Assembly (NCBI GenBank): GCA_000004985.1 | Contig: GG739606.1 | DNA from: Naegleria gruberi | Lineage: Eukaryota | Length of the DNA stretch: 1,031 bases | Reading direction: 5' to 3' (one strand) | In this document: in pieces, positions 1 to 1,031 of the stretch | How the letters are laid out: every line of letters starts with the position of its first letter | Numbering within the stretch: the stretch's first letter is position 1 | Position numbers and translations under genes: made by a program | Notes under the pieces: generated by a model | The model's input: the letters and a program-made list of their open reading frames with translations, nothing else | What the model was told of the DNA's origin: nothing | Database searches by the model: none

Positions 1-176
1 ATTGCAATATTGAGATTCGAACAACCATGCGAAGTTATTGGAAATACACAACACCGATGATACGCCAATTACAAATTTTCCTTATTGACAAGCTACATAC
101 TAAAAACCGCAAAGATAACAAATCCAAACAAATCACTAATCAATGGGTAAGTTTATGACAAGTTATGCATTATTTG

Positions 177-202
177 TACAGCACGTTTACTTCAAGTTTG
201 AC
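177..202 (+). repeat. Left arm of the 26-bp inverted repeat (terminal inverted repeat including the TA flank).
   Basis: Direct comparison with the reverse complement of 550-575 gives 25/26 matches. The single mismatch is at position 196 (g here, a in the partner). Confidence 0.9.
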
Positions 203-225
203 AAGATTTGGGGAAATTAAAATTG

Positions 226-233
226 TTTTTTTT
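226..233 (+). repeat. Poly(dT) homopolymer tract (T8) inside the element, embedded in the palindrome-like ttaaaattg-T8-aaaatttaaa.
   Basis: Seen in sequence. Established knowledge: poly(dA:dT) tracts of at least 8 exclude nucleosomes in yeast promoters. Confidence 0.3.
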
Positions 234-545
234 AAAATTTAAAGTATTTCATCTTTCAATTTTGATTTGGCAAGTAAACTCAACTTCATTTGAAAAGAAT
301 CTGTAACGATAATATTTTATTCAACAAAATGCTAATTTCTCGATGGAATTAAGGTAGTTTTGAAATCTGACTTCAAATTATGAATCCTCGCATTGACATA
401 CCCCTTGGGGTGGCAGCATTCTCAAAAATATGTAGAAATGAGTAAGAACGAGTGATTAGGTGTTGTTCTATTGAAATGCTTATTTTGGATTTGACAGCAG
501 AAGAACAACAAAATTTTTTCTAAACAATTTATTTTCTTTCAAAAA

Positions 546-553
546 ACGCGTCA
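546..553. promoter_or_regulatory. MCB-like motif ACGCGTCA (MluI cell-cycle box consensus ACGCGTNA) directly abutting the right terminal inverted repeat.
   Basis: Seen in sequence: the palindrome acgcgt lies at 546-551 in an otherwise GC-poor region. Established knowledge: MBF-type G1/S factors bind ACGCGT in yeasts. It is a single copy, so the call is weak. Confidence 0.15.
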
Positions 554-575
554 AATTTGAAGTAAACGTGCTGTA
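550..575 (-). repeat. Right arm of the 26-bp inverted repeat (terminal inverted repeat including the TA flank).
   Basis: Its reverse complement, tacagcacgtttacttcaaatttgac, matches 177-202 at 25/26 positions. Confidence 0.9.
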
Positions 576-778: not shown

Positions 779-1031
779 ATGACAAACCAACAACAAGATG
801 GTGGAGTAATTAACACCACCTTCTCATCACCTCCAAACCAACAGTTTCGTATAAATTCACCACCTTCTCTCACTAACCTGACAAGTCAAACTTCATCTCA
901 AGACACAATGCTTGCTGACTCACCAACCAAGATCAATAACAGTTCTCTTAATAGAAGAGAGTCCTCCACTCAAAAATCTACAACTAAAAGTTTACCATCC
1001 TCATCCAAAACTCCAAGAAGCTCCTCAGTAC
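779..1031 (+). CDS. 5'-complete, 3'-truncated CDS whose first 84 codons are read through. The product has a Ser/Thr/Asn/Gln/Pro-rich intrinsically disordered N-terminus, typical of fungal transcription regulators or other nuclear regulatory proteins. The specific product is not identifiable from this fragment. Translation: MTNQQQDGGVINTTFSSPPNQQFRINSPPSLTNLTSQTSSQDTMLADSPTKINNSSLNRRESSTQKSTTKSLPSSSKTPRSSSV...
   Basis: Seen in sequence: ATG at 779 is the first ATG after an in-frame TAA at 740-742, and the frame stays open to the window edge (84 codons in about 30% GC DNA). The other two + frames terminate immediately. Context aaaATGa has A at -3 with an A-rich leader (752-778), as in budding yeasts. 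Codon choice is strongly yeast-like: CAA for Gln, AGA for Arg, CCA/CCT for Pro, GGT/GGA for Gly, TCT/TCA/TCC for Ser, and no CGN or CCG. By my hand count the protein is about 24% Ser and 14% Thr, with no hydrophobic signal peptide. One in-frame CTG at 878-880 would be Ser in CTG-clade yeasts. The organism and product class are inferences. Confidence 0.78.
   Translation, partial: MTNQQQDGGVINTTFSSPPNQQFRINSPPSLTNLTSQTSSQDTMLADSPTKINNSSLNRRESSTQKSTTKSLPSSSKTPRSSSV

Follow-up and report, generated by a model that had tools for sequence, protein, structure and literature searches.

What are the two near-identical inverted sequences that stand upstream of an open reading frame in this DNA, and does the segment that they bracket matter to the gene below it? 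In the window, by which we mean the whole 1,031-nt stretch of DNA that was analysed, the segments 177-202 and 550-575 agree at 25 of 26 positions when one of them is read as its reverse complement. The left arm reads TACAGCACGTTTACTTCAAGTTTGAC and the right arm, as its reverse complement, TACAGCACGTTTACTTCAAATTTGAC; their sole mismatch pairs position 196 with 556. Direct comparison thus bears out the complementarity, the coordinates and the 347-nt spacing of the arms as first described. We consider it probable that the segment between the outermost TAs, 179-573, is a single copy of a non-autonomous cut-and-paste (class II) transposon belonging to the IS630-Tc1-mariner (ITm) type, a type taken here to include pogo-like elements, and that it integrated at a TA within a 5' intergenic region. 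The features on which the argument draws are the following.

177-178, no strand assigned: left TA, putative target-site duplication, read directly; the only perfect flank repeat among lengths 2-10 under three boundary definitions
179-202, plus strand: left terminal inverted repeat CAGCACGTTTACTTCAAGTTTGAC, matching the reverse complement of 550-573 at 23/24 positions (25/26 with the TA)
203-549, no strand assigned: internal AT-rich non-coding core, 347 bp, subjected to ORF, Rfam, tRNA, tandem-repeat, tblastn and skew tests
550-573, minus strand: right terminal inverted repeat CAGCACGTTTACTTCAAATTTGAC, mismatched to the left repeat at 556, which pairs with 196
574-575, no strand assigned: right TA, putative target-site duplication, read directly
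779-1031, plus strand: 5' end of the downstream ORF, with an ATG at 779 and an S/T/N/Q-rich frame that runs without a stop for 84 codons, up to the end of the window

A window of 33% GC is one in which an inverted pair might arise by chance or as a low-complexity match, and the repeat search did return many short AT-rich inverted matches (19 pairs). Against such an origin, the analytic expectation for inverted pairs of at least 25/26 in the window is ~1e-7, the best 26-nt inverted match across 200 mononucleotide shuffles reached 23/26, and 200 dinucleotide-preserving shuffles contained no inverted 26-nt match with three or fewer mismatches. The terminal repeat moreover contains CAGCACG and is therefore not of low complexity. 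The analytic expectation and both shuffle tests refute a chance origin, in agreement with the preliminary description, which had called it vanishingly unlikely; we assign it a practically negligible probability.

The similarity between the arms stops sharply at both edges, as had also been proposed. Beyond the TAs there is no match between TATTTG on the left and TCCCGA, the right flank read as its reverse complement, and when the next 100 nt inside the two arms are aligned with gaps, 93 of 500 shuffles score at least as well. The extension of the arms to 64 nt at 70% returned by the repeat search is AT-rich noise, because the inner-arm alignment is not significant against shuffles. The real repeat is 24 nt plus the TA. 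Abrupt ends on the outside, together with an absence of similarity beyond 26 bp on the inside, are the pattern of transposon terminal repeats and not of a long palindrome, which the lack of significant similarity between the inner arms rules out.

The termini are CAG with immediate TA/TA flanks, and here the first reading holds as well, the TAs being read at 177-178 and 574-575. When flank repeats of 2-10 bp were compared under three boundary definitions, the only exact one was the TA/TA adjoining CAG...CTG; the chance of a TA on both sides is ~0.013. A 2-bp TA duplication is the hallmark of ITm elements and, in combination with CAG termini, the signature of the IS630-Tc1-mariner group including pogo; termini beginning 5'-CAG are common among Tc1/pogo-type elements. 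The locus thus displays terminal inverted repeats at both ends (23/24, or 25/26 with the TA) and a flanking TA pair, which, TA being palindromic, could equally be read as a duplicated target or as a repeat that is 2 bp longer without duplication. Only the 2-bp TA and the CAG termini speak to the superfamily, because the interior holds no remnant of a transposase; judged by these few letters, the element would belong to the ITm group.

The same flanks bear on the other superfamilies with terminal inverted repeats. The 3-, 4- and 9-bp flank repeats left by PIF/Harbinger, piggyBac/Kolobok and Mutator elements, respectively, are absent. The most plausible of these alternatives is a non-autonomous hAT element whose 8-bp target-site duplication has partly decayed: the 8-bp flanks at the CAG...CTG boundaries, TATTTGTA and TATCGGGA, match at 5/8 positions, and four of the five letters of the terminus CAGCA agree with YARNG, the consensus for hAT ends. 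In yeasts, moreover, the earliest MITEs to be described were hAT-derived and ~356 bp long (mRover1, PMC4316626). A 5/8 match, however, has a chance of ~0.05 before correction for 27 comparisons, and the 8-bp duplication of a hAT-derived MITE is not found. Because a duplication starts out identical and decays at the neutral rate of the repeats, three mismatches in 8 bp do not agree with one in 24-26 bp of repeat, and an ITm insertion is the simpler account of the exact TA/TA. We therefore regard an origin from hAT or another such superfamily as improbable.

What lies between the repeats agrees with a miniature element. The segment 179-573 measures 395 bp and has 30% GC in surroundings of 33%. 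It lacks coding capacity, as the preliminary description had stated: the longest ORF in 177-575 runs to 45 aa from a TTG start, and the longest that begins with ATG to 25 aa. Size and content accordingly fall in the range of MITEs (under ~800 bp, non-coding). Searches of the element returned no Rfam family (E <=1), no tRNA and no tandem repeat, and the lack of any Rfam or tRNA match rules out an RNA gene. A tblastn search with 192 proteins, nearly all of them pogo/Fot1-type, gave a best E of 0.026 in the element, which is noise because 192 queries were used; with no significant similarity, a transposase relic of pogo/Fot1 type is ruled out. Removing the element together with one TA in silico restores no interrupted ORF, and insertion into a reading frame is rejected because this removal rebuilds none. 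The site predicted to have existed before insertion can be written in two ways.

Predicted empty site: GCATTATTTG-TA-TCGGGAAAGAG, also given as GCATTATTTGTATCGGGAAAGAG
Predicted empty site: ATGCATTATTTGTATCGGGAAAGAGTCC, composed of window positions 165-176, one TA and positions 576-589

Strand composition offers a further line of evidence. A exceeds T and C exceeds G on the plus strand of both non-coding flanks, 1-176 and 576-778 (GC skew -0.16/-0.23, AT skew +0.21/+0.19), whereas 179-573 is strand-symmetric (GC skew +0.10, AT skew -0.02; chi-square p = 0.0085), and this break in composition coincides with the boundaries of the terminal repeats. An element that differs in composition from two mutually similar flanks fits inserted DNA. 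In single-stranded form the segment adopts a hairpin, with the terminal repeats pairing to close it (z = -3.45), and hairpin folding is typical of MITEs. We also observed an internal 10-mer, ACTTCAAATT at 370-379, that is a perfect complement of 554-563 in the right terminal repeat. By chance alone the window should hold about 1.3 such pairs of 10 nt, as estimated from the match probability; being at chance level, this 10-mer is probably not a subterminal binding-site repeat.

Turning to the gene, the distance from 575 to the ATG at 779 is 203 bp, which confirms the earlier placement of the element some 200 bp upstream. The frame that opens there has a chance of ~0.002 of running for 84 codons, favours CAA, AGA, CCA and TCA in its codon usage, and is preceded by an A-rich context. 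The label of a regulator-like gene, in contrast, finds no support: the 84-aa fragment matches no Pfam family, and a phmmer search against 1.84 billion cluster representatives yielded no genuine homologue, its single match being a spurious low-complexity match to a repeat protein. A protein homology search with the same fragment likewise found none among proteins of ~0.65-1.8 times the query length, apparently the only lengths which that search returns, and this negative does not exclude a full-length homologue. No 20-25-mer around the ATG was found in the full texts of papers, and the products of five window ORFs, searched as exact sequences, are not on record.

Two side observations concern the coding strand and its complement. 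An exact 12-nt direct repeat, CACCACCTTCTC, occurs in the ORF at 814-825 and 858-869, 44 nt apart; because 44 is not divisible by three, the copies fall in different reading frames, and the repeat, which lies in an S/T/P-rich stretch, is probably low-complexity coding sequence. On the minus strand, frame 2 is open for 219 codons between ~340 and ~1000 under genetic code 4, with a W-rich nonsense product. We reject the alternative code (table 4), since this antisense frame arises artefactually from the many TCA codons of the sense strand, whose complement is TGA.

The position upstream of an ORF also invites readings in which the inverted repeats belong to the host. One, the alternative that the preliminary description had named, holds that they are a promoter structure under selection, either paired protein-binding sites or a hairpin/cruciform, single-copy, conserved and not mobile. 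The segment does lie 203 bp upstream of an ORF, selection could keep its repeats near-identical, and one copy is what the window contains. A non-palindromic spacer of 347 bp, on the other hand, makes cruciform extrusion implausible, 24-26 bp far exceeds a typical transcription-factor site, and the segment has no Rfam match; the TA/TA flanks, the CAG termini and the composition break would all need to be coincidences. The likelihood that we attach to this explanation is small.

A second host-centred reading is that of a promoter segment inverted by a recombinase, as in bacterial phase-variation switches. The geometry resembles that of fimS, in which inverted repeats surround ~350 bp upstream of an ORF. 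The window, however, is unlike prokaryotic DNA, with 778 bp that hold no ORF of more than 49 aa. The start of the downstream ORF is disordered and S/T/N/Q-rich, and its ATG is preceded by A-rich sequence with no Shine-Dalgarno. Sigma-70-like sites are not enriched (5 against 4.1 expected), and a search of 185,579 bacterial and archaeal species, each represented by one genome, did not find the terminal repeat. We reject a bacterial invertible switch on this absence from GTDB and on the sigma-70 counts, and hold an invertible segment to be very improbable.

If a transposon copy is the best account of the locus, does the insertion influence the gene? It had been suggested that the element may contribute regulatory sites or the start of transcription. 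Nothing in the window indicates this, and the TATA-like sequence ATTATAAC (~634-641) is not part of the element but falls in the interval that separates it from the ATG. By default, one would expect the insertion to have been neutral or mildly disruptive and to have left the upstream region ~397 bp more distant from the core promoter. We imply no regulatory function for the element. The original proposal of a non-autonomous Tc1/mariner-type miniature element is partly supported, by structure: the repeats, CAG termini, TA flanks, small size, AT-rich and non-coding interior and composition break. The promoter role finds no support.

A motif that came to light in the window deserves mention in its own right. 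TGACAAG occurs four times on the plus strand, at 86-92, 156-162, 199-205 and 879-885, where 0.18 copies are expected and the maximum in 200 dinucleotide shuffles is 2. The copies at 86-92 and 156-162 lie in the upstream flank as part of a longer repeat (TGACAAGCTA / TGACAAGTTA), and that at 199-205 lies partly in the left terminal repeat and partly beyond its inner edge. The motif may be a transcription-factor site. Because two of its copies lie upstream of the element, the insertion would have moved them ~397 bp away from the core promoter; whether this displacement bears on the regulation of the gene we treat as a lead, not as evidence. A bolder proposal would combine several of these strands: a hitherto undescribed family of Tc1/mariner-type MITEs, active in the recent past of a budding yeast, of which the present copy would have changed a regulatory gene's promoter, for instance by putting distance between the upstream TGACAAG motifs and the core promoter or by contributing a new site. 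We think this combination unlikely.

By the transposon reading, the insertion would have come about as follows. A DD(E/D) transposase encoded elsewhere in the genome would bind both 24-bp terminal inverted repeats, excise the element and integrate it at a TA, and duplication of that target would have left the copies now at 177-178 and 574-575. Mobilisation in trans and a parent element are postulated here. The near-identity of the two repeats suggests that the insertion is fairly recent. The copy could either be a member of an amplified MITE family or a one-off derivative formed by internal deletion.

The window contains one copy of the element, and our searches for others covered several collections. 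A 23-nt terminal repeat had no match in JGI metagenome contigs, IMG/VR viral contigs or one genome per GTDB species, a pattern of two termini with a gap of 356-386 nt had none in metagenome contigs, and the whole window had none by blastn against plasmids and phages; the metagenome, viral, GTDB, plasmid and phage collections are not known to include the source organism, and these negatives say little about copy number. In the searchable literature, 12-mers of the terminal repeat appear only in unrelated human primer lists. For a possible parent, Cirt2 peptides deduced from primers in PMC6593122 (IMDGHG, LQPLDLG and VDMKWL) were embedded in a pogo-like query. An 87-aa pogo-like query returned only short fragments (57-153 aa), and four fragment matches traced to apparently fungal contigs showed no similarity there to the terminal repeat. 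With a 640-aa chimeric query, the best 120 of 324 matches contained no Cirt2 or window peptides; among these 120, Fot1-like transposases dominate, and those that are named come from filamentous ascomycetes.

In kind, the element is ordinary and textbook, and it opens no long-standing question. Its interest would depend on the host. In our judgement, the absence of the terminal repeat from the GTDB genomes, the low coding density, the A-rich sequence ahead of the ATG and the preference for CAA, AGA, CCA and TCA codons would suit an AT-rich budding yeast; the CTG-clade Candida source named in the preliminary description is a guess. Class II transposons and MITEs are rare and poorly catalogued in budding yeasts. 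No yeast MITE was reported before 2014 (PMC4316626), and as late as 2026 the ITm elements of yeasts are described as rare and poorly characterised (PMC13469147). Should the window come from a budding yeast, a young miniature element of ITm type would lengthen a short list and would point to a transposase that is active now or was recently. The element may already be catalogued, for example among the Candida Cirt families, or may be a member of a new family. Its 5' intergenic position makes it, purely as a hypothesis, a candidate cause of allele- or strain-specific differences in expression.

Among known elements, Tc1/mariner MITEs are hairpin-capable and often found near genes, as with the Stowaway elements of plants and the mimp elements of Fusarium, which derive from impala. 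The yeast elements offer closer points of reference. Cirt2 or Fot1_CA (GenBank AF205929) is a pogo/Fot1-like DNA transposon of Candida albicans, 1822 bp long, with a transposase ORF of 1551 bp (~516 aa) and 46-bp terminal repeats, and it occurs in CTG-clade yeasts (PMC12047244 for the structure; PMC4316626 for the occurrence). It belongs to the ITm group, as our element probably does, and has the TA target-site duplication that is putative here; PMC12047244 gives this duplication for Cirt2, PMC13469147 for Dici. In contrast to Cirt2, which encodes a transposase, our element carries no remnant of pogo/Fot1 type. Its repeats of 24 bp (26 with the TA) are likewise shorter than the published length; a deletion derivative of Cirt2 would have 46-bp terminal inverted repeats, whereas the similarity here ends at 26 bp.

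In Diutina catenulata (Debaryomycetaceae), MITEs that derive from the ITm-related transposon Dici1 have a TA duplication and terminal repeats starting with CAG (PMC13469147), and thereby attest ITm-derived MITEs in a related family of yeasts. Measuring 1053 bp, with terminal repeats of 8 or 33 bp that start CAGTCGGT and 42.7% GC in a genome of 53.5% GC (PMC13469147), they are clearly different elements from the one described here, which is 395 bp long, starts CAGCACGT and has 30% GC in surroundings of 33% GC. Similar small size and terminal repeats are found in mRover1 of Lachancea waltii, a non-autonomous hAT-derived MITE of 356 bp with 8-bp target-site duplications and insertion polymorphism (PMC4316626). 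Whereas mRover1 has the hAT 8-bp duplication, our element has a 5/8 flank match and an exact TA/TA.

The nearest likeness in kind is to plant Stowaway and to the mimp family of Fusarium (PMC3599309 and PMC5579170), Tc1/mariner MITEs that likewise combine short terminal inverted repeats and TA flanks with an AT-rich, non-coding body of a few hundred bp. Whereas those are multi-copy families with identified or inferred autonomous partners, the present case is one copy in one window. By analogy with them, we suggest that the element at this locus would work, in kind, like Stowaway or mimp-type MITEs.
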